From positions 35,389 through 99,388 of the forward strand of contig JAZDMI010000028.1 in assembly GCA_043801155.1 (NCBI GenBank): a DNA stretch of 64,000 nt, written 5' to 3'. Below the pieces are notes generated by a model. The model worked only from the letters and a program-made list of their open reading frames with translations, was not told the DNA's origin and searched no databases. The translations under genes and the position numbers were made by a program. Source of the stretch: Candidatus Gottesmanbacteria bacterium (lineage in GTDB: Bacteria > Patescibacteriota > Microgenomatia > JAMCYU01). Of the stretch, positions 9,731 to 23,778 are shown in pieces; position 1 is the stretch's first letter; each line of letters begins with the position of its first letter.

Positions 9731-10124
9731 TAAATTTACTTTATATTTCTCTTTCTAATTTAATAAACAGCACGATAAAACTCGCTTTTATGCGAAGTTA
9801 TACCAGTGCCAATTCTTAAGATCAGATAGAGTCATATTCTGTTTATTATTTTATATGAACAGCGTCAATCTGTCAAATTGTATTTTTAATGTTTTATCTT
9901 CAGTGCTTTTATCCTATCGTCAGAAGGTGGTTTTTTTTCCTCATCGGGTTGAGGAGCTACTTCTTCTCCTTCACAAAAGTCACCACCAATAAGAAATTGC
10001 CTACTAGGAAAAAGTACTTCTTTTACTCTGTGTAAAGCGGATAAAGTTATTTTTCTAATTTCTATACTAGCTACGGTCATAATTGGTTACGGCTAGAACC
10101 GTATAAAAGATAATATGATGTTAA

Positions 10125-10152
10125 GTGCTAGGGGTGGGAGTCGGACCCACGA
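10125..10152 (-). other. 3' segment of an outer tRNA-like gene (here called X): T-arm plus acceptor 3' strand
   Basis: Minus strand reads GTGGG-TCCGACT-CCCAC-CCCTAGC-A. CCCTAGC is the exact complement of GCTAGGG at 10524-10530. The organism-specific TCCGA T-loop is also seen in the tRNA at 17098. Confidence 0.4.
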
Positions 10153-10199
10153 CCTCGGACATAGACGCGGCGCTTCGCTAGCCGCTACTATTTGCTTTT

Positions 10200-10229
10200 G
10201 TGCCAATGAGAAGAGTCGAACTTCTGTCA
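10200..10229 (-). other. 3' segment of a middle tRNA-like gene (here called Y): T-arm plus acceptor 3' strand
   Basis: Minus strand reads AGAAG-TTCGACT-CTTCT-CATTGGC-A. CATTGGC is the exact complement of the GCCAATG 5' acceptor at 10418-10424. Confidence 0.4.
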
Positions 10230-10276
10230 ATCGCTTATAACTTTCTCCGCCTTCGGCGGAACGTTTTATCGGCAAG

Positions 10277-10348
10277 TGGCTACGGCTGGGATCGAACCAG
10301 CGACACATGGCTTATGATGCCACTGCTCTACCACTGAGCTACGCAGCC
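10277..10348 (-). tRNA. tRNA-Met (anticodon CAU; elongator or lysidine-Ile2 type), intact cloverleaf
   Basis: Minus strand reads GGCTGCG-TA-GCTCAGTGGTAGAGC-A-GTGGC-ATCATAA-GCCAT-GTGTC-GCTGG-TTCGATC-CCAGC-CGTAGCC-A. It is flanked by 14-16-bp inverted repeats at 10261-10274 and 10382-10397. Confidence 0.85.
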
Positions 10349-10397
10349 AAAAAAGTTAAATCGGATAAAAGTGCAAAGCACTTTGCCGATATGAAAC

Positions 10398-10424
10398 GAC
10401 CGCTCTGCCGTTGAGCTACATTGG
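10398..10424 (-). other. 5' segment of middle tRNA-like gene Y: acceptor 5' strand plus a complete D-arm
   Basis: Minus strand reads GCCAATG-TA-GCTC-AACGGCA-GAGC-G.. and then runs straight into the inverted-repeat helix. No anticodon arm follows. Confidence 0.4.
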
Positions 10425-10510
10425 CAAATAGGAAATCCTTGCTCCCTGCCCCGCCAATGCGACTCTTCGACGCGAAGCTGTAAGCTTCGGGAGAAGCGAG
10501 CATTTGTGGG

Positions 10511-10530
10511 GTGCCACTGAGCTACCCTAG
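10511..10530 (-). other. 5' segment of outer tRNA-like gene X: acceptor plus partial D-arm
   Basis: Minus strand reads GCTAGGG-TA-GCTC-AGTGGCA, then about 330 nt of inserted sequence before the matching 3' segment at 10125-10152. Confidence 0.4.
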
Positions 10531-10580
10531 CTTAGCCTCAATTTTAGCAGAAAAAAAGCAGGAAGTAAATTTATATAGAT

Positions 10581-11183
10581 CTATAGATTCGTGGCCGCTG
10601 GGGTTTTATTGCGGAATTTATCCTGAACGTATATTACTGTGATAGTAAAAACAATAATTAAAAATAGAGAGATACCGTAAACTGCTAATCGTTGGTTGAT
10701 TTGATAAACATAGCTGACCAATTGACTTAGAAGTGTTAGCATGTTAACCACCATTGCCAAGAAAAAAGCACCAGAAGTTAACTTATAAGATGGCTTGAAT
10801 TTCCCAAAAGAAACAAACAGGATCACGGCTAAAACAAACAAAGGAATATAGATAATTGTTTTAACTAATAAATCCTTTGTTTGATACGGCAGCACCTCTG
10901 CTTTTAAATAAGCATTATTAGCTTGCTCGTAGGTTGGATAAGAAACACCAAGGTATTGGTATTGGGACATGCCATTTGCTTGCAGATTATTATTGATTGC
11001 AAATACTGGTGTTTTTGGAGTCTCACCATATAAAGATTTGGTTAAATCACTAGCAATAAATTGAATAAAAACAATTAAGGAAATTCCCAAAAGGAAACTG
11101 ATAATAAGACTTACTCCGGAATATTGTGATTTCGTTACAGGAGTAGCATTAGATTGAGGCAAAGATTCTTCCATTAAATCCAT
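10581..11183 (-). CDS. hypothetical membrane protein (200 aa, multiple transmembrane segments)
   Basis: Hydrophobic segments. It sits between the tRNA-fMet-like repeat R2 and tRNA locus 1. Confidence 0.5.
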   Translation of the reverse strand: MDLMEESLPQSNATPVTKSQYSGVSLIISFLLGISLIVFIQFIASDLTKSLYGETPKTPVFAINNNLQANGMSQYQYLGVSYPTYEQANNAYLKAEVLPYQTKDLLVKTIIYIPLFVLAVILFVSFGKFKPSYKLTSGAFFLAMVVNMLTLLSQLVSYVYQINQRLAVYGISLFLIIVFTITVIYVQDKFRNKTPAATNL

Positions 11184-11232
11184 TAAATCATTTCCGCGTC
11201 TTACCTGTCAAGCCTTGGAAACCTAGGTTATT

Positions 11233-11262
11233 GGTTGCGGGAGTTGGAAGGAATACACACAT
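11233..11262. repeat. Direct repeat R2: partial copy of the tRNA-fMet 3' end (GTTGCGGGAGTTGGAAG) plus shared extension GGAATACACAC. Resembles an att-site or cassette boundary.
   Basis: Matches 13576-13592 (gttgcggggctgggag) and 11926-11952. Confidence 0.5.
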
Positions 11263-11266
11263 ATTT

Positions 11267-11845
11267 TTACCTTTTCAATTCGTCTAACCCCGATAATTTT
11301 TCTGAAGAATCTCGATATATCTGAGTATCAAATTTAATATTAGAAAATTTTCCTTTAAGATAAAATATTATATTTTTTAACGATCCTTTATCCCAATCAC
11401 TTATATAAATTTCTTCTTTGTGACCATCATTATGGTTGAATATTAACCATATTCGTACTATGGGTATAAATGTTTTTCCTGTAAACATTGGAACTACTTG
11501 TTGTCGGTATCCCACCAAATTAATATCCTTTAGATTAATAATTTTATCCTGAGAAGAGCCCAATACAGGTTTATAGTAATAATATAAGAACTGATCATCA
11601 ATTAAAATTTTATTTTTCTGTAATTGAATAAGTATTATTAAACCTGCGACAATCCAATAGATTGCTAATCCTCCTATAATAAAAATTAACACTTGCAGGG
11701 TTTCTTGAGATGGATATTCTTTATATAAATTAATCGCTTTTGGTAATAACCAAAATCCGAAAAGGATAGTAATAATAATCAACGAACTAACGAGAAGAAG
11801 TCTTCCAAATGAAAATAACGATGGTTTGAATTCAACCTTATTCAT
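11267..11845 (-). CDS. hypothetical membrane protein (192 aa, 2-3 transmembrane segments)
   Basis: Hydrophobic N-terminal half. Bounded by repeats R1 and R2. Confidence 0.5.
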   Translation of the reverse strand: MNKVEFKPSLFSFGRLLLVSSLIIITILFGFWLLPKAINLYKEYPSQETLQVLIFIIGGLAIYWIVAGLIILIQLQKNKILIDDQFLYYYYKPVLGSSQDKIINLKDINLVGYRQQVVPMFTGKTFIPIVRIWLIFNHNDGHKEEIYISDWDKGSLKNIIFYLKGKFSNIKFDTQIYRDSSEKLSGLDELKR

Positions 11846-11900
11846 ATGATCACTATACCAAATATGTAAATGAAATGAAAATAAATAAACAAATAGCGCC

Positions 11901-11952
11901 CTATTAGACGCTATTTTTATCTCGGTTGCGGGGGCTGGAAGAAATACGCACT
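11901..11952. repeat. Direct repeat R1: copy of the tRNA-fMet 3' end plus about 35 nt of its downstream flank. Resembles an att-site or cassette boundary.
   Basis: aaatagcgccctattagacgctatttttatctcGGTTGCGGGGGCTGGAAGaaatacgcac aligns with aaatagcgtcttatagcgctctaatttagatttGTTGCGGGGCTGGGAG at 13541-13592. Confidence 0.5.
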
Positions 11953-12003
11953 TACTTCCTGAGTTTTAAAATACAATTTTAGCCTTTTCTTGTAATTATA
12001 TTT

Positions 12004-13494
12004 TTAGTTAACATCATATTCGCTTACATCTTCAAGTATTACACTGTGTTCTTGGCTGTTAGGATCAAACCTAATTAAATCATTAATATCTTGTGAATTT
12101 CTGGTCATTCTAACATATGCCACTTGTGAACTTCTATTCCACATGGCGGTAAATACAGTCCCATAACTTAACTTCTTATTATTTTCTTCTTGCATTATAC
12201 CAAGTAGATTTATTCCAGACGTGGTTTTAGGCTTCAGAAAAACATATTCAGACACGTTAGTTTCTGAATTTTTTATTAAATACGACAACCACATTCCATT
12301 TGGAGACACAGAAGCGTTTGAGACGATTCCTTTATAACCTAAGATTTCCTGTTTTAATATATTATCTGAAGACCAAAGGCTAAATTTGAAATCATAATTA
12401 GGTCTGGTTTCCAAAACGTAGAACTGGTTATCACTAATCCATCCGACGTTATACGATTGACAGGTAACTGATATATCCAAAGGTAATTTTGTTAATTTTT
12501 TATTTGGAAACTCTAAAAGATAAGATTTATATCCCCAAGTATTAAAACATCCCCGAGCCGGAGTTGTAAATTGATAATATGCTATTGCTTTATTACCGTC
12601 GGGAGAAATAGTGACTCCACTCGGAATATTCCATTCCCCACCAGACCACTCTTCGCTTATGGGATCAGGAGTAAATTCCTTATCAAAACTTATAATACTA
12701 AAGTTACCACTTATATCCTCAACTAAAAAATGAATCTTGCTGTTCCAATCAAATGCAAGAACATTTTTGTCTCTTGCCCAGTTATATAAATCATATGACT
12801 GGGAATCTACAGATTTATTAACTAATTTATCTGCAATAGAAATCTCTCTATTGTTAACGAGGTCATAAATTTTTAAGTCATAAGATATTCCTGGAGGATT
12901 AAATGCAATCGAGTCGCCGCTATTTTTGACTTCCATTGGTTCATTTTTAACATCTTCTTTCCATTTCAATAATTTATTAATTGCATCTTTGCTTATTTCT
13001 AAATAAGCAATAATTCTACCATCTCCCGATATTCTCGGTTGGGTGAAAAAATCCTCATCCCACTTAGCATCAACATTATTACCTGTTAAGTAATGACGAG
13101 ATGTGTATTGAATTGGTGTGTGAGTTGTAATTTTAGTTTGATTATTTCCTTCAACAGAACTTGTCCAAACATCACCTCCCCGAATAAAAACTATATTTGA
13201 TGAATCTCTATTATTAACAACTCTGGCGCTGAATGCTTGTGGTTTAACTGGAGGTTTAACTAAAACGGTAGTATCTCTTTCTTTTAATATCTTAGGTGTT
13301 AATAGTCCAAAGCCAAATTTATATAAACAAAGTACTGTGCTAAGGAATACAAAAATGATTAAAAGTATGACCAATATAATTTTAAACTTGGAATTTTTTT
13401 TACTGTTATTTAAAGAAGAACTAGTTGGAGTTGTAATATTCAATTTATCTGATGCTGATAGAGAATTACTATCTACCTCCATTTTCATTTCCAT
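12004..13494 (-). CDS. Hypothetical secreted or anchored protein with an N-terminal transmembrane segment and TolB/PD40-like beta-propeller repeats.
   Basis: Repeated ..SPDGNKAIAY.. and ..SPNGMWLSY.. motifs and a WD-like periodicity after one transmembrane helix. Confidence 0.5.
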   Translation of the reverse strand: MEMKMEVDSNSLSASDKLNITTPTSSSLNNSKKNSKFKIILVILLIIFVFLSTVLCLYKFGFGLLTPKILKERDTTVLVKPPVKPQAFSARVVNNRDSSNIVFIRGGDVWTSSVEGNNQTKITTHTPIQYTSRHYLTGNNVDAKWDEDFFTQPRISGDGRIIAYLEISKDAINKLLKWKEDVKNEPMEVKNSGDSIAFNPPGISYDLKIYDLVNNREISIADKLVNKSVDSQSYDLYNWARDKNVLAFDWNSKIHFLVEDISGNFSIISFDKEFTPDPISEEWSGGEWNIPSGVTISPDGNKAIAYYQFTTPARGCFNTWGYKSYLLEFPNKKLTKLPLDISVTCQSYNVGWISDNQFYVLETRPNYDFKFSLWSSDNILKQEILGYKGIVSNASVSPNGMWLSYLIKNSETNVSEYVFLKPKTTSGINLLGIMQEENNKKLSYGTVFTAMWNRSSQVAYVRMTRNSQDINDLIRFDPNSQEHSVILEDVSEYDVN

Positions 13495-13575
13495 ATGATT
13501 TAAGTATCACATAACCCCAATAAAATATCAAAAAGAATACAAAATAGCGTCTTATAGCGCTCTAATTTAGATTTG

Positions 13576-13646
13576 TTGCGGGGCTGGGAGTCGCGCCCAG
13601 CCTAGGAGATTATGAGCCTCCTGTGCAACTCTACACTACCCCGCGA
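13576..13646 (-). tRNA. initiator tRNA-fMet (CAU)
   Basis: Minus strand reads CGCGGGG-TA-GTGT..GCAC-A-GGAGG-CTCATAA-TCTCC-TAGG-CTGGG-CGCGACT-CCCAG-CCCCGCA-AC. The C1:A72 mismatch and the CGCGGGG...CCCCGCAAC ends match bacterial initiator tRNAs such as E. coli tRNA-fMet. Confidence 0.8.
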
Positions 13647-13763
13647 TTCGTTAAAAGAACATAGGTATTATATAGAATTTGATGAGATTACACAAGAAAG
13701 ACATAATTATATGATCCTCATTTTAGAAAAATTTGTAGTAGGATTGAAGGCTTGAGGTTAAAT

Positions 13764-13931
13764 TTATTTAATTATTCCCATCCCCTTAGCTCGCTCTACG
13801 AGGCTCATTAATTGTTGTTGAAGGCTTTCAGCTTCTTCCTGACTTTTAGCATTTTTAAGTGCTTCCTGCACAGCATTAATTTGTTGGATTAGATTTTCTG
13901 CTTCTGGATTGCCACCCATTTCTGCATTCAT
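13764..13931 (-). CDS. possible small coiled-coil protein (55 aa) downstream of the ftsB-like gene
   Basis: Own translation MNAEMGGNPEAENLIQQINAVQEALKNAKSQEEAESLQQQLMSLVERAKGMGIIK. The Shine-Dalgarno is weak. Below the size cut-off of the ORF track. Confidence 0.3.
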   Translation of the reverse strand: MNAEMGGNPEAENLIQQINAVQEALKNAKSQEEAESLQQQLMSLVERAKGMGIIK

Positions 13932-13956
13932 AGATTGTTATTCTAACTTCTTTTCT

Positions 13957-14301
13957 TTAAAAAAACAAATTCCGCCATTTTTCCCAATTAGATAAATTTG
14001 CATCGTGTGCCCCACTTAGATCGATTACAGTATTTGGAGAAGGCATAATAACGACAATCTCTCCTTCTCTGGCTAATCCTAATTTTTCCCTGGCTGTTTT
14101 TTCCAGATAAGCCGGGCTTTCAACTTCAGCAAGCTTTTTTTTAAGATCTTTATTTTTATTCTGAAGCTCATTAACTTGGTTTTCGGTGTTTTTTATCCTA
14201 TCGCCTGCCTGCAAAATCTCTCTAATTGATCTAGTTAAATTGATAATTAAAAACAAACCGATAATTATAATTAGAAGGTTAATAATTTTCTTTTTAAACA
14301 T
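13957..14301 (-). CDS. septum formation initiator (FtsB/DivIC-like)
   Basis: N-terminal transmembrane segment, then a coiled coil NQVNELQNKNKDLKKKLAEVESPAYLEKTAREKLGLAREGE matching the FtsB/DivIC pattern. Confidence 0.6.
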   Translation of the reverse strand: MFKKKIINLLIIIIGLFLIINLTRSIREILQAGDRIKNTENQVNELQNKNKDLKKKLAEVESPAYLEKTAREKLGLAREGEIVVIMPSPNTVIDLSGAHDANLSNWEKWRNLFF

Positions 14302-14380
14302 AAGTTAGGGCAACGTATTATTAATTTAGTATTATCTATATTGACACATATCACTATGAATGATATTATGAGCTTTAATT

Positions 14381-15247
14381 ATGGCAACTCAAGCACTTGA
14401 TTTAATATCTACTAAACAGAAATTTGTTGAATACCTTCAGGGTCAACGCCGGGCCCAAGCTACTATTTTAGCATATCGAAAAGACATCGACCAGCTCGTT
14501 AGCTTCCTAACAGATATGGGTAAGCAGAATATTGATCAAATTGAGAAGATCGATTTGGAAAGCTTTCTCTCCAAGCTCGGGAAAGATGGTTATACGCCAA
14601 AATCACTTTCACGAAAGCTAAATTCGATTAAGACTTTTTATCGCTTTTTAAAATCATCAGGCTTAACTCAATTTGACCAGGCATCCGATATATCCCATCC
14701 TAAATATGAAATTAAACCGCCGAGAATATTGTCAAAAATGGAATATCGGGCTCTGCGGGATGCCTGCCGGGATGATATCAGAATTTCGGCCATTGTTGAG
14801 TTATTCTTACAAACTGGTTTACGAATTGGCGAGCTAGCTAGTTTACATCTTGAAGATATTAATAATAGTGAAATAACAATTAAGCCTTTTGAGTCACATG
14901 AAGGCCGAAATGTACCAATGAATAAGGCGGCCAAGGCAGCATTAGACCGATATCTTGAGGTTAGACCAAAAACCAAAGATTCTTCAATCTTTATTACTAA
15001 AACCGGGCGTCCACTACTTATACGAAATATCAGAACGGCAATTGACCGTTATTTTAAATTGGCTGGCATTGAGAAGGCTTGCGTTAATGATCTTCGGCAT
15101 ACATTTATTGCTCAACATTTAATGTCCGGCACGCCGCTAACGATTATTTCCAAACTCGCCGGCCACAAAAGGCTATCAACCACGGAAAAATATTTGGATT
15201 TAGTTAAGGATAAAGTCGAGGAAAACGTTAAGCTGGAAGAATTATAA
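14381..15247 (+). CDS. tyrosine site-specific recombinase, XerC/XerD-like
   Basis: N-terminal SAM-like domain. Catalytic residues are R in LRIGELASL, H-x-x-R in LRHTFIAQHL, and H..Y in GHKRLSTTEKYL. Confidence 0.85.
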   Translation: MATQALDLISTKQKFVEYLQGQRRAQATILAYRKDIDQLVSFLTDMGKQNIDQIEKIDLESFLSKLGKDGYTPKSLSRKLNSIKTFYRFLKSSGLTQFDQASDISHPKYEIKPPRILSKMEYRALRDACRDDIRISAIVELFLQTGLRIGELASLHLEDINNSEITIKPFESHEGRNVPMNKAAKAALDRYLEVRPKTKDSSIFITKTGRPLLIRNIRTAIDRYFKLAGIEKACVNDLRHTFIAQHLMSGTPLTIISKLAGHKRLSTTEKYLDLVKDKVEENVKLEEL

Positions 15248-15261
15248 AATATAATATAGAT

Positions 15262-15858
15262 ATGTCAGTAGATCCAGAAAGATTGGTACGAAAAGTAAAA
15301 GTAGCAACCGAACCACCTAAACAGGAAAAGGCTGCTCAATGGAAAATACCCATTGAGCATCAACCAAACCCAGAAGAACTAGAACTTACCGTTCAAAGAA
15401 GGATTTGGGAAGGCCTTAATCCTCGAAGAATATTACAAGTTATAAATGAAGGAGTTTTTGGTGGGAAAGGTGAAATCGAAGATGTCTATCTTACGACTGT
15501 TGATCTAAATTTCAGTATTAACTACAACACTTATGATCATAATCATTTTATAGGTTTACAATTCCCAAAGGGAACCGACCTATCAAGGACGGTTGGAAAT
15601 ATAGGTTTGGCTGTAGTAGCACATAGCATTTTAGTAATCGGAGGATATTGTCCTAAGGGTAATCGTTGTGTTAGAGTGCCTAGTCCGTGGGGAAAAGGGT
15701 ATGTAGATGAAGTCGAATTGGTTGGAAACGAATTCAAAAAATATTTAAATCCATCTGAACCAAATATTCAAGAACTATTAGAAGGTACTTTAGCCGAGGC
15801 TTCTAAAAACTCCTCTTACCAACCTCCTTCTTATGAACCACCAAATTATTTCGGATAA
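15262..15858 (+). CDS. hypothetical protein (198 aa)
   Basis: ORF immediately after the recombinase. No motif recognised. Confidence 0.45.
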   Translation: MSVDPERLVRKVKVATEPPKQEKAAQWKIPIEHQPNPEELELTVQRRIWEGLNPRRILQVINEGVFGGKGEIEDVYLTTVDLNFSINYNTYDHNHFIGLQFPKGTDLSRTVGNIGLAVVAHSILVIGGYCPKGNRCVRVPSPWGKGYVDEVELVGNEFKKYLNPSEPNIQELLEGTLAEASKNSSYQPPSYEPPNYFG

Positions 15859-15859
15859 G

Positions 15860-16387
15860 TTAAAGTATCTTTTCTAATATCCTCGCCTCTTGCACACTCC
15901 ATGGAGAATATTGCGTTGGATCCATTTTGATATTTTCTATTAATTCAATCCAGGGAATCCATTGCCAGTCAGCTACTTCTTCTGGATTGGGAGTAAAATT
16001 ATTATCATCTTCATAATCAACATAAGCAATAAAAATCGGACAGATTTCATTTTCGACAATTCCGCTTTTGTCTTTAAATCGATAGCGATAAGGTGAGGCT
16101 TCTTTAATTTCTCCGGTAAATCTTACATTCAGCTCGCTCTCAAGTCTTCGTCTGACGGCCTCCCCGATACTCTCACCCGGCATGGGATGTCCGCAAATCG
16201 TATTTGACCAAACACCGGGAAAAGTCTTTTTGGAAAAAGCTCTTTGTGTTAAGAGAAGTTCGTTTCTTGAATTAAAGAGGAAAAACGAAAATCCACGATG
16301 AAGAGGAGTATTTTTAGTATGGACAGTGGCTTTATCAGCCGTTCCTATCTCGCGATTTTTATCATCAACCAAAACAACCTTTTCCAT
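15860..16387 (-). CDS. idi: isopentenyl-diphosphate delta-isomerase, type 1 (Nudix fold)
   Basis: LHRGFSFFLFN..LLLTQRAFSKKTFPGVWSNTICGHPMPGES..RRRLESELNV and RFKDKSGIVENEICPIF match E. coli Idi ([51 protein letters not shown]). Confidence 0.85.
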   Translation of the reverse strand: MEKVVLVDDKNREIGTADKATVHTKNTPLHRGFSFFLFNSRNELLLTQRAFSKKTFPGVWSNTICGHPMPGESIGEAVRRRLESELNVRFTGEIKEASPYRYRFKDKSGIVENEICPIFIAYVDYEDDNNFTPNPEEVADWQWIPWIELIENIKMDPTQYSPWSVQEARILEKIL

Positions 16388-16432
16388 TCTGGAATTTTAA
16401 CATCTTGTATAAAATTGGACAAGATTTAAAAA

Positions 16433-16861
16433 TTAAATTCCTCTCCCTAAGTTTGTCCTAACTAGACTACAAAATTCCCTATATGTCTCAAAATCAATTT
16501 CGGGGACTAAGGGTTTGATATTATATTCAACTTGAGTAATGACGGGTACTTTTCTCCCTGGATGTATGAAATCATTTTGCCAGCTAGAATAGTATATCTT
16601 TTCTTCTCCAACTTTAACTGGCCCATTTTCATCAAATACTGGACAAGTTCTTAAGGCAGATACAAAGGCTTCGGAAAATTTTGCAGAGGTTTCATTTATT
16701 TGTCTAGGGTCTCTTTGCACAGTAATAAGACCAGTTCTTCTCCATACTTCTTCTAATATTTGATCACCTTGACATTCCTCCAAGGTTAAGCCATTCATTT
16801 TTTCCTCTATGCCTGGTTCTACCACGAATTGTTTTTTTAATGTTTCTTGGTCCATAACCAT
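16433..16861 (-). CDS. hypothetical protein (142 aa)
   Basis: ORF with a Shine-Dalgarno. No family recognised. Confidence 0.45.
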   Translation of the reverse strand: MVMDQETLKKQFVVEPGIEEKMNGLTLEECQGDQILEEVWRRTGLITVQRDPRQINETSAKFSEAFVSALRTCPVFDENGPVKVGEEKIYYSSWQNDFIHPGRKVPVITQVEYNIKPLVPEIDFETYREFCSLVRTNLGRGI

Positions 16862-17021
16862 ATGACTTATCTCCTTAAAGTAAAAAATCTCCTTAATGAA
16901 GATTTCGTAGTTGCGAATATTGGTGGAAAAGAAGAATCTACCGCCTTTATGGTGTAAAATCGTAAAAATTTTGCACCATTAATTCTACCTACAATATGTA
17001 TTATAGCACTAAATGCAAATT

Positions 17022-17063
17022 TGGTGGATCTGGAAGGAGTCGAACCATCTGCATCGACTTTAG
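17022..17063 (-). other. Orphan tRNA 3'-half-like segment: anticodon 3' strand, T-arm, and an acceptor 3' strand that includes an encoded CCA.
   Basis: Minus strand reads ..AGTCG-ATGCA-GATGG-TTCGACT-CCTTC-CAGATCC-A-CCA. AGTCG complements the CGACT anticodon stem of the 5' fragment at 17181-17217. The acceptor strand matches no 5' segment in the window. Confidence 0.3.
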
Positions 17064-17097
17064 CTTGTCAACAATTGACAAGCGCTTAAAATTTTTG

Positions 17098-23595: not shown

Positions 23596-23778
23596 CTTCT
23601 CGTTTTCCCCTCGAGAAGGTTATCATCGGCCACTAAAAAAGACCCTTGCTCGAGAGATTCCTTAAGACGGTTCCTGACTTTGGTTCGCCGTAGCTTAATG
23701 CGAAGGCGACCTTTTACAGTTGCGGCACAGTCCCAGATTCTCACTGGGTTCCCGTAACCTTAAGGACCAATTTAAAAA
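23596..23778 (-). ncRNA. Cobalamin (AdoCbl) riboswitch, with an expression platform that sequesters the Shine-Dalgarno of the 22990-23592 gene.
   Basis: Minus strand reads CCTTAAGG(P1)..ACGGGAACCCAGTGAGAATCTGGGACTGTGCCGCAACTGTAAAAGG...AAGTCAGGAACC(B12 box)..CTTAAGG(P1'). Then CCTTCTCG-AGGGGAAAA-CGAGAAGG pairs over the GAGAAGG Shine-Dalgarno just before the ATG at 23592. Confidence 0.75.

Follow-up and report, generated by a model that had tools for sequence, protein, structure and literature searches.

Small gene units bounded by partly tRNA-like sites at an initiator tRNA gene of a Candidatus Gottesmanbacteria bacterium point to an integron-like gene-capture system

The initiator tRNA gene, its repeats and the neighbouring genes

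In the window, the whole 64-kb stretch of DNA that was analysed, ARAGORN identified an initiator tRNA-Met(CAT) gene on the minus strand at 13575-13645. The gene carries the initiator signature C1/A72 and has an unusual T loop, CGCGACT; the Rfam tRNA model missed it, even at E<=10. It is kept in the relatives L001-L004 and L009, with compensatory changes in the T stem (CTGGG/CCCAG vs CCGGG/CCCGG). With its 3' acceptor strand (...CCCCGCAAC) the gene forms the first boundary, or anchor site, of an array with the order tRNA - [496-aa cassette + R1] - [192-aa cassette + R2] - 200-aa gene, R1 and R2 being two repeats described below. The GC content of the array segment was 28-34%, compared to 35-47% in the flanks. 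Alongside the array, tRNA genes nested inside tRNA genes were observed at 10125-10531, and also in L009 at 12216-12404.

The left end of the first cassette is a weak hairpin with a T-rich tail just 3' of the tRNA (13541-13568, minus strand; repeat families D8 and I3). This hairpin is related to the one 3' of R1, and such hairpins were found directly 3' of all native initiator tRNAs in the relatives. A promoter-like site (13531-13503) precedes the gene of a 496-aa protein (12004-13494, minus strand) that is membrane-anchored at its N terminus and gave faint Tricorn_N/PD40-like beta-propeller matches; only two non-self homologues of it were found among the 5.8 billion proteins searched. The right end is R1 (11924-11960, minus strand), a full-length boundary site GGAAGTAAGTGCGTATTTCTT-CCAGC-CCCCGCAAC detected by profile and pattern search. 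The second cassette starts with a terminator-like hairpin of 11 pairs with a T-rich tail (11891-11917, minus strand; intrinsic-terminator-like by scan), followed by a promoter-like site with an extended -10 (11881-11852) and the gene of a 192-aa predicted membrane protein without a Pfam family (11267-11845, minus strand). It ends at R2 (11232-11260, minus strand), a degenerate boundary site GTGTGTATTCCTT-CCAAC-TCCCGCAAC detected by pattern and by a partial profile match, which starts 7-15 nt past the stop codon of the 192-aa gene. The promoter-like and terminator-like signals of both cassettes come from consensus scans only.

R2 also lies upstream of the gene of a 200-aa predicted membrane protein (10581-11183, minus strand). 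A profile search of the window found no distal site for this gene, which could be the cargo of a third cassette or else belong to the flank. The layout of the three minus-strand ORFs was as an earlier reading of the sequence alone (the sequence-only reading) had described it. That reading counted three cassettes; as the window holds only two repeats, only two segments are bounded at both ends.

The recurrence of the 3' end of the initiator tRNA at R1 and R2, proposed by the same reading with coordinates correct within 1-2 nt, was borne out. The pattern GGTTGCGGGGGCTGGAAG matched exactly at 11924-11941 and with 2 mismatches at 11233-11250; these 2 matches compare with 0.03 expected, and none of 100 shuffles reached 2. 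Compared with the tRNA (GTTGCGGGGCTGGGAG), R1 has an additional G and one or two substitutions. The two repeats were also said to share an extension that has no counterpart in the tRNA, and TGGAAGRAATACRCAC indeed occurred mismatch-free only at 11245-11260 and 11936-11951, within a broader similarity of 34 nt at 82% (repeat family D3). That R1 copies about 35 nt of the downstream flank of the tRNA is true in a loose sense only, through the 27-nt hairpin regions at 11891-11917 and 13542-13568, whose direct alignment gives 70% identity and whose complementarity is 85% (D8, I3). Nor are the sites plain copies of the tRNA: only about 9-14 nt are tRNA-like (C-C-C-C-G-C-A-A-C and the T-stem strand), and the remainder is conserved non-tRNA sequence.

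On the other side, 736 nt from the 5' end of the tRNA and in line with the 0.7 kb first estimated, lies a gene for a Xer-like tyrosine recombinase of 288 aa (14381-15247, plus strand; Pfam Phage_integrase and SAM-like). Between anchor and recombinase are a 55-aa ORF and the backbone gene of a DivIC/FtsB-like septum protein (13957-14301, minus strand; Pfam DivIC, E=5.5e-16). The latter is syntenic in 13 of the 14 relatives, weakly in L001 and L002, and unmatched in L012, whose fetched locus starts only ~1.2 kb upstream of xerC. The Xer-like gene is itself conserved backbone, with 55-68% identity in the 14 relatives, with or without an array. Against NCBIfam the protein scored 168 for XerC (cut-off 335) and 155 for XerA (cut-off 220), and missed all curated cut-offs, XerD included; it is thus no textbook member of any of the three. 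The integron integrase model TIGR02249 gave 70 bits against a cut-off of 265 and covered only residues 14-195, and PRK15417 gave 25 against 435.

A family of boundary sites in related contigs

R1 and R2 belong to a widespread family of sites, AARTAGGTTCTGATTTCTT-NNANN-CCCCGCAAC, of which R1 is a full and R2 a degenerate member. The family was detected by one metagenome scan with the pattern TTCTGATTTCTT-N5-CCCCGC, which gave 79 matches at 78 loci. Since this pattern fixed 19 bases, their apparent conservation is in part a product of the search itself. Conserved though not required for detection were an A at -8, GG at -7/-6 and a central A in N5 (57 of 60 sites). Furthermore, AAC, which lay outside the search pattern, comes next in 54 of the 79 matches, where about 1 in 64 was expected. 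The five positions adjoining the core vary. In a subset of sites the block AAATCTGGTATAAATA is conserved ~45 nt upstream, a terminator-like hairpin follows most copies, and lineage-specific sub-types (long forms) exist. The dyad symmetry or conserved hairpin usual in core sites of tyrosine recombinases or in integron attC was not seen in the site. A profile built from 60 external instances recovered R1 at full length (model positions 2-38, E=4.9e-8) and part of R2 (positions 21-39, E=0.04), and found nothing else in the 64-kb window. Searches of viral, phage and plasmid collections did not turn up the motif.

At least 20 contigs have one to three copies of the site 3' of an initiator tRNA in the same orientation, or sites in arrays. 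The initiator tRNA is followed by one to three co-oriented sites in L038/L092, L041/L059/L099/L064, L071, L069/L075, L043 and L093; arrays of sites alone were seen in L079, L057, L055, L045, L047, L040, L081, L070, L053, L065 and L005. The sites are spaced 0.3-1.8 kb apart. Most of the units between them contain a single ORF, 95-390 aa long and pointing either way (about half of the cargo ORFs lie on the opposite strand), and some are empty. Cargo proteins include Fic, NUDIX, nucleotidyltransferase, GIY-YIG, methyltransferase and phosphatase types and many unknowns, and no recombinase was found among the cargo of the array units.

Comparison with relatives, which the sequence-only reading had asked for, showed that the 496-, 192- and 200-aa genes have no homologue in the syntenic loci of any of the 14 relatives. 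In four of these (L006, L003, L014 and L010) the two tRNA-Met genes are adjacent, a compact "empty" arrangement. Invariant, syntenic repeats without empty sites, which the same reading had named as evidence against mobility, are clearly not what the relatives contain. The full site is missing in 12 of the 14 species-level relatives, L008 retaining only a truncated half-site, so that the system is patchy.

The rare homologues of the window genes elsewhere are flanked by sites of the family, but have other neighbours and stand in another order. The homologue of the 192-aa protein (78%) in L023/L024 is preceded by a site and hairpin like those upstream in the window and followed by a site right past its stop codon; beyond the site that ends this unit, the DNA is unrelated. 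In L025 the homologue of the 200-aa protein (73%) lies directly 3' of the tRNA, with a copy of the tRNA 3' end on its upstream side and, downstream, a full site followed by a Fic cassette. The homologue of the 496-aa protein (69%) in L016 is associated with a degenerate site (E=3e-4) and has no tRNA in its context; the ATTTCTT part of R1 is kept downstream of the 496-aa homologues in L016 and L017. The contigs L037 and L045 share 422 nt of 100% identity that end at ...CCCCGC, past which the two are unrelated, and L023 likewise diverges right after CCCCGC.

Proposed cassette exchange at the initiator tRNA and alternative explanations

The sites and shuffled cassettes in dozens of related metagenome contigs point to an undescribed integron-like gene-capture system. 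We consider it fairly probable that the segment in the window is a short array of mobile, site-specific, integron-like or CIME-like single-gene cassettes, with the 3' end of the initiator tRNA as its anchor. Of the two readings first offered, attL/attR scars of tandem integrations and an integron-like array keyed to a tRNA fragment, the comparative data support the second.

A cassette would begin just past one core, between ...CCCCGC and AAC..., and extend to the following core. Its parts, from left to right, would be AAC with a terminator-like hairpin, a promoter-like site, usually one cargo gene, and an end site of ~35 bp, AARTAGGTTCTGATTTCTT-NNANN-CCCCGC. A site-specific recombinase acting in trans would exchange DNA inside the CCCCGC(AAC) core or where it ends. 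The acceptor 3' strand of the tRNA has this core in common with every cassette site, so an inserted circular cassette would regenerate the last bases of the tRNA, and because each cassette brings AAC and a terminator the tRNA would stay intact. Older cassettes would be pushed outward, and cassettes could be excised, lost and reshuffled. We infer the role of the sites in recombination, the position of the crossover and the circular intermediate.

Which enzyme would do this is a separate matter. The neighbouring Xer-like recombinase may be the cassette integrase, in a Xer-exploiting system like IMEX/pdif; this is compatible with the cassette array, and we regard it as possible though rather doubtful. 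Its gene was the only tyrosine recombinase gene found in the window and in all array loci: searches with tblastn and a profile of 30 Xer orthologues over ~0.7 Mb of loci returned the backbone Xer gene only. The sequence-only reading's remark that the cassettes carry no integrase of their own therefore held for every cassette, within the ~10 kb searched per locus. In at least 15 loci, 0.4-3 kb separate the gene from sites; it is divergent from the array as intI is in an integron, and encodes a protein below the curated cut-offs of XerC, XerD and XerA. Against this role, relatives that lack the site altogether have the gene as well, in synteny and at the same degree of divergence, so that its closeness to the array may be no more than a consequence of a conserved tRNA-ftsB-xer backbone. 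Moreover, inspection of the frequency table of the site showed no 11-6-11 dif-like dyad, the array sites are direct repeats, unlike the inverted pairs of pdif modules, and a candidate enzyme could sit elsewhere in the genome, beyond the ~10 kb examined per locus. A further step would be to regard the arrays of Patescibacteria (CPR) as a true functional analogue of the integron, with an initiator-tRNA insertion site, ~35-bp tRNA-restoring sites and a recruited Xer-like integrase, which we put forward tentatively and think rather unlikely. If true, these bacteria would have a dedicated gene-capture platform that uses the essential initiator-tRNA gene, and the tRNA-within-tRNA nests would be a second product of that tRNA-directed recombination.

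It is unlikely, in our judgement, that the units are decayed remnants of integrase-carrying islands, which would have accreted in tandem at the tRNA 3' end and later lost their integrases, leaving immobile att-flanked CIME-like relics. Direct repeats of a tRNA 3' end around low-GC, strain-specific inserts are the classic signature of island accretion and decay, and precedents are documented both for accretion, island decay and its products, the CIMEs (PMC5704250), and for tandem partial-tRNA arrays (tycheposon preprint, 10.1101/2020.12.28.424599). R2 and the sites in L016 and L008 are also visibly degenerate. However, ~60 site-bearing loci with ~40 bounded units contained no integrase, no integrase fragment and no element larger than 3.6 kb, whereas some intact parents would be expected to survive if islands had decayed independently. 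Among contigs with Xer orthologues of only 50-67% identity, the non-tRNA part of the site remains conserved, which argues for present selection on the site. Finally, the units typically hold one gene, some being empty, and single units recur in other arrays with their boundaries at the core.

Least probable, and in our view very improbable, is that the site is a regulatory or RNA element (for example a small RNA gene or a promoter/terminator module, ending in a tRNA-like 3' tail) spread by duplication, with the genes between brought in by unrelated processes: the upstream block in some copies resembles an extended -10 promoter and most copies are followed by a terminator-like hairpin, but aligned copies showed no conserved secondary structure or covariation (RNAalifold, 16 and 11 sites, 0 to -1.1 kcal/mol, no pair changed on both sides), Rfam gave no match, and this explanation does not account for the direct orientation of copies in tRNA-started arrays, the exact end of contig identity at the core, or the occurrence of one site on unrelated cargo in either orientation.

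Comparison with known systems

tRNA islands and CIMEs resemble the cassette array in that they lie at a tRNA 3' end and regenerate the tRNA. Here too, direct partial-tRNA repeats stand between successive inserts with an intact tRNA at one end, and the inserts are variable, with empty sites in L006, L003, L014 and L010. CIMEs are also att-flanked units without integration genes (PMC5704250). However, they are decayed ICEs or IMEs of many kb traceable to an integrase-bearing parent, whereas the units here measure 0.3-1.8 kb, and no integrase-bearing parent with the same att was found in ~60 loci (~10 kb per locus); collections of viruses, phages and plasmids lacked the site as well. Across divergent genomes, unlike in CIMEs, the element-side arm of the site is strongly conserved.

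The tycheposons of Prochlorococcus are likewise tRNA-anchored variable islands in streamlined genomes and have partial tRNA copies between elements, more scattered in the islands (10.1101/2020.12.28.424599). They are kb-long, and each brings a tyrosine or serine recombinase of its own together with replication genes, hallmark genes that were not found in the units here. Their att is a simple tRNA segment of ~40 nt, whereas the site described here joins 9-14 tRNA-like nt to a conserved non-tRNA arm.

IMEX elements and the pdif modules of Acinetobacter plasmids are small and carry cargo without a recombinase of their own. They are thought to be moved by the housekeeping Xer recombinase; here a host Xer-like gene is present and adjoins the array, as a candidate only, its product being under every curated cut-off. 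A dif-type site is an imperfect palindrome of 28 bp, with arms of 11 bp on each side of a 6-bp centre (11-6-11), and the sites on either side of a pdif module are inverted. Compared with this general layout, no 11-6-11 dyad was seen in the frequency table, in which only the outer 7-8 nt of the site (GGTTCTG ... CGCAACC) are weakly inverted, 13-15 nt apart.

Integrons resemble the array in organization, with several differences. Integron cassettes are promoterless, co-oriented and expressed from a common Pc, and IntI has an integron-specific extra domain. Here the cargo lies in either orientation with its own promoter-like and terminator-like signals, and the neighbouring recombinase falls short of the IntI model (70 bits vs 265). 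In place of attI, the 3' end of an essential tRNA gene serves as the anchor. What is conserved in the site, unlike in attC, is sequence rather than structure; R''/R' (RYYYAAC/GTTRRRY) boxes and a conserved hairpin are lacking, and on direct reading its core CCCCGCAAC / GTTGCGGGG does not fit GTTRRRY. As in integrons, however, small and mostly single-ORF units without their own recombinase are arranged in arrays, with a recombination-type site at one end of each unit and a fixed anchor beside a tyrosine-recombinase gene that is divergent from the array. The cargo consists mainly of unknown proteins and toxin-type genes (here Fic and nucleotidyltransferase), genomes differ in the order and content of their cassettes, and the site sub-types are lineage-specific, much as the repeats of superintegrons are.

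The initiator tRNA and its insert

ARAGORN called a tRNA-Met(CAT) at 13575-13645 on the minus strand, which carries the C1/A72 signature of an initiator. As this tRNA recurs in the related loci L001-L004 and L009 with compensatory changes in the T stem, we took it to be a working gene. Its T loop is CGCGACT and not TTCRANY, which explains why the Rfam tRNA model failed to match it, also at E<=10. In this lineage the T loop of the initiator tRNA is without the canonical TTC, reading YGCGAYT or CGCAACT (window 13575-13645; L001-L004, L009, L038, L041, L069, L071, L093), and the D stem has 3 bp; the tRNA is conserved, with compensatory changes in its stems.

Downstream of the initiator tRNA three ORFs of 496, 192 and 200 aa follow on the minus strand; on its other side lie a 55-aa ORF, a DivIC/FtsB gene and the gene of a 288-aa tyrosine recombinase. 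The sequence-only reading had claimed that copies of the tRNA 3' end precede the minus-strand genes, and this was confirmed for R1 (11924-11941, between the 496-aa and 192-aa ORFs) and R2 (11233-11250, between the 192-aa and 200-aa ORFs), the repeat pattern being matched twice in the window against 0.03 expected. R1 is GGTTGCGGGGGCTGGAAG and R2 is the same with two mismatches; their minus-strand sequences are ...CTTCCAGCCCCCGCAACC and ...CTTCCAACTCCCGCAACC. They run from the 3' strand of the T stem through the initiator acceptor strand CCCCGCA and the discriminator A to C(C). The extension that the same reading had described as shared by R1 and R2 and foreign to the tRNA was also found, with about 15 nt common to both. 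A terminator-like hairpin of 11 pairs and then a promoter-like site were detected downstream of R1. Neither a search of the full window at Rfam gathering thresholds nor one of 9800-14400 at E<=10 matched the repeats, and exact-sequence look-ups with the 192-aa and FtsB proteins of the window returned no record.

Fourteen species-level genomes, from Gottesmanbacteria and other Microgenomates, had orthologues of the Xer-like recombinase with 55-68% identity. The order in all 14 was FtsH-like gene, TrpRS, tRNA-Met gene(s), ftsB, xer, tRNA-Ile(TAT) and a large conserved gene, with the exception that L012 had no detectable ftsB match, possibly since the fetched locus starts only about 1.2 kb upstream of xer. 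The comparison of relatives for presence or absence, proposed with the initial claim, was in agreement with it: no homologue of the three window genes was found in the 14 syntenic loci. Four of the relatives (L006, L003, L014, L010) have the elongator tRNA-Met gene next to that of the initiator; in the window the two are separated by 3.2 kb of lower GC content (28-34%), which we therefore concluded to be an insert. The Xer-like gene was found with or without the insert.

A second variable spot lies between the 3' end of xer and tRNA-Ile(TAT) (window 15248-17096; L009 12130-12210). This interval is almost empty in L003 and L006; the window has three genes here, encoding a NUDIX protein and unknown proteins of 198 and 142 aa. 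The interval in L009 contains a 1.3-kb insert ending in a second copy of the final 27 xer codons; such duplicated 3' codons are a signature of insertion into the 3' end of the gene. The related Gottesmanbacteria loci L001 (7250-8437) and L002 (7680-7868) are colinear apart from an inversion that affects nothing but the 77-nt initiator tRNA gene, and a 1.1-kb radical-SAM-like gene unique to L001 abuts the tRNA 3' end, its far end being without a family site.

Just distal to the 200-aa gene, at 10531-10125 on the minus strand, three tRNA genes are nested like Russian dolls. The innermost, an intact tRNA-Met(CAT) (10348-10276, minus), sits in the anticodon loop, at about position 37/38, of a second tRNA-Met(CAT) (halves 10425-10390 and 10235-10200, minus). 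The outermost gene, which is tRNA-Arg(CCT)-like (10531-10428 and 10160-10125, minus), holds this second tRNA in its anticodon loop, and its D loop contains a highly structured insert of about 65 nt (10447-10513, minus; CACCCC...GGGGCA) in which there are two internal hairpins. Splicing in silico gave clean cloverleaves for both outer tRNAs; ARAGORN in intron mode did not call the interrupted tRNAs. The nest junctions are marked by the short direct repeats CTAT and T(C/T)ATA. In L009 (12216-12404) a tRNA-Ile(TAT) was found within a tRNA-Ile(TAT), the inner gene lying between the 9-bp inverted repeats CAGTAAAAT/ATTTTACTG. These nests may be inactivating insertions bringing a replacement tRNA, or an unknown kind of intron; no description of tRNA-in-tRNA nests was found in the literature searched. 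Elsewhere in the window a cobalamin riboswitch (23648-23778, minus) scored 40.7 bits against a gathering score of 31.5.

Boundary sites and the probable exchange of units

Locus L005 carries two copies of a site, ATAATAGGTTC(T/G)(G/A)ATTTCTT-N5-CCCCGCAAC, with a Fic gene in between, and the same site accompanies the few homologues of the window cargo genes. In the loci of the 192-aa homologue (L023 and L024) a site lies upstream and is followed by the same hairpin as after R1, and a second site comes directly after the stop codon. The 200-aa homologue (L025) is preceded by the initiator tRNA 3' end, then come a site and a Fic gene. The 496-aa homologue (L016) resides in an unrelated neighbourhood without any tRNA and has a degenerate site 55 nt past its stop codon.

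A metagenome scan with TTCTGATTTCTT-N5-CCCCGC resulted in 78 loci. AAC came next in 54 of the 79 matches, though it was outside the search pattern, and the matches that continued with AAC were nearly all on low-GC contigs; other positions outside the pattern were conserved too, among them an upstream AARTAGG and the central A of N5. R1 was recovered at full length (E=4.9e-8) and R2 partially (E=0.04) by a profile of 60 distinct external copies, which detected no further place in the window.

The homology between the window and L023 starts right after the core, comprising hairpin, promoter region and ORF, and stops at the next core, the sequences outside being unrelated. L037 and L045, contigs from different samples, are 100% identical over 422 nt up to ...TTCTGATTTCTTCCAATCCCCGC and unrelated from there on, and both L023 and contig L047 leave the family consensus immediately past CCCCGC. 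We therefore placed the unit boundary between CCCCGC and AAC. Every unit starts with AAC, which a terminator hairpin often accompanies, so that in the proposed mechanism a unit placed first in the array would both complete the tRNA and terminate it. This would also explain why the R1 flank resembles the tRNA flank and the native terminators of the relatives.

With relaxed site matching we found arrays of 1-3 sites after the initiator tRNA, all in the same orientation. The site spacing was 1046, 419 and 1525 nt in L038/L092, and 933, 448 and 312-388 nt in L041/L059/L099/L064; the same tRNA-then-sites arrangement was seen in L071, L069/L075, L043 and L093. A dozen more contigs had arrays of sites alone, and in L036/L077 the site and the tRNA have opposite orientations. 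Units bounded by sites measured 0.3-1.8 kb, with one of 3.5 kb, and usually consisted of one ORF on either strand, some being empty. Among the cargo were Fic, NUDIX, nucleotidyltransferase, GIY-YIG, methyltransferase and 2-phosphosulfolactate-phosphatase-like proteins, and many without a family; membrane and secreted proteins and toxin-type genes were included. No recombinase or transposase was found among the cassette cargo.

Additionally, some of the sites have a further conserved block, AAATCTGGTATAAATA, about 45-70 nt upstream, which is like an extended -10 promoter; the next 28 nt or so are variable. In a different subset TATATTGAAGCAAACTGAGGCYGAYAC is the shared sequence (loci of the upstream-block subsets: L044, L048, L057, L060, L065, L071, L094, L095, L046, L036, L050, L069). 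The blocks may be lineage-specific sub-types of the site or promoters into the next unit. A 38-nt tandem unit (GAGCGAAGCGACGCAGTCCTGAGCTTGTCGAAGGGCAA) directly after the site core showed copy-number polymorphism (L099 3784-3859 versus L041 4488), and related '...CTGAGCG.AGTCGAAGGG' sequences stand beside cores or tRNA ends in L025, L023, L054, L060, L062 and L014.

Other origins of the site and the candidate enzyme

A dif site or replication terminus is unlikely here, as GC skew and gene orientation are without a switch across 6-20 kb; on inspection the array site showed no clear likeness to dif. The reading of the sites as decayed complete tRNA pseudogenes, split tRNA halves or 3' exons was dropped. 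In 35 of 37 contexts the 260 nt upstream contained no complementary 5' acceptor strand, and a pseudogene or half is also contradicted by the T-arm-position region, which cannot pair, and by several site copies following one intact tRNA. A structured RNA or attC-like hairpin was rejected, since neither a consensus secondary structure nor covariation was seen among the aligned copies; they had no Rfam match, and the site is unlike an integron attC. An attP origin from phages or plasmids was rejected on database scans: IMG/VR viral contigs gave 5 hits only, random-looking and in coding-like sequence without the TTCTG arm, INPHARED phages one weak Salmonella-phage match only, the site itself not being found, and PLSDB plasmids no site match.

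Neither tblastn nor a profile of the Xer orthologues detected a second recombinase in the window and all fetched loci, where the sole tyrosine recombinase is the Xer-like backbone gene (window 14381-15247, plus strand). In at least 15 loci this gene and sites are 0.4-3 kb apart, a proximity that is confounded by the conserved tRNA-ftsB-xer linkage. The protein had about equal, sub-cut-off scores against XerC, XerD and archaeal XerA, and was far below the integron integrase model. When all ORFs near arrays were clustered, the recurrent families were of the backbone only (FtsB, Xer, TrpRS, a GIY-YIG protein and an HTH protein by the elongator tRNA), and none of them tracked the arrays. The Xer-like protein is a possible candidate for the enzyme of the cassette arrays.

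In 8 loci (L066 5059-5987, L065, L059, L053, L046, L091, L058, L100) the gene immediately preceding the elongator tRNA-Met encodes a recurring protein of some 228 aa. It has an N-terminal HTH of the resolvase/transposase type and, recognised only by eye, a LAGLIDADG-like 'LYWAEG' stretch in its C-terminal part. The L066 copy of the gene is followed by a 21-nt duplicate of the tRNA 5' end and then by the complete tRNA.

Significance and relation to known systems

In CPR/Patescibacteria, whose tiny genomes contain few recognised mobile elements, the way in which genes are acquired is poorly understood. Recurrent cassette arrays anchored at the initiator tRNA would give this large group a definite means of gaining and losing genes, and would extend integron-like systems beyond IntI and structured attC sites. 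The site of about 35 bp is well defined and can be searched for in any assembly; the family flags variable islets in metagenome-assembled genomes and may be an explanation for contig breaks near initiator tRNA genes. It also raises a biochemical question that can be tested directly, namely by which recombinase AGGTTCTGATTTCTT-N5-CCCCGCAAC and the acceptor end of the tRNA are recognised.

No published description of such arrays in CPR was found in the open-access literature. With integrons and strings of cis-mobilizable elements the arrays have in common recombinase-less units, a fixed anchor and shuffling. However, they fall short of the tests that define either: they contain neither an IntI nor structured attC sites, and an integrase-bearing parent element was not found in the fetched loci. 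Tycheposons are similar in having a tRNA anchor in a streamlined genome (10.1101/2020.12.28.424599), but their hallmark genes are missing from the array. We file the arrays as a site-specific cassette system outside every named family.
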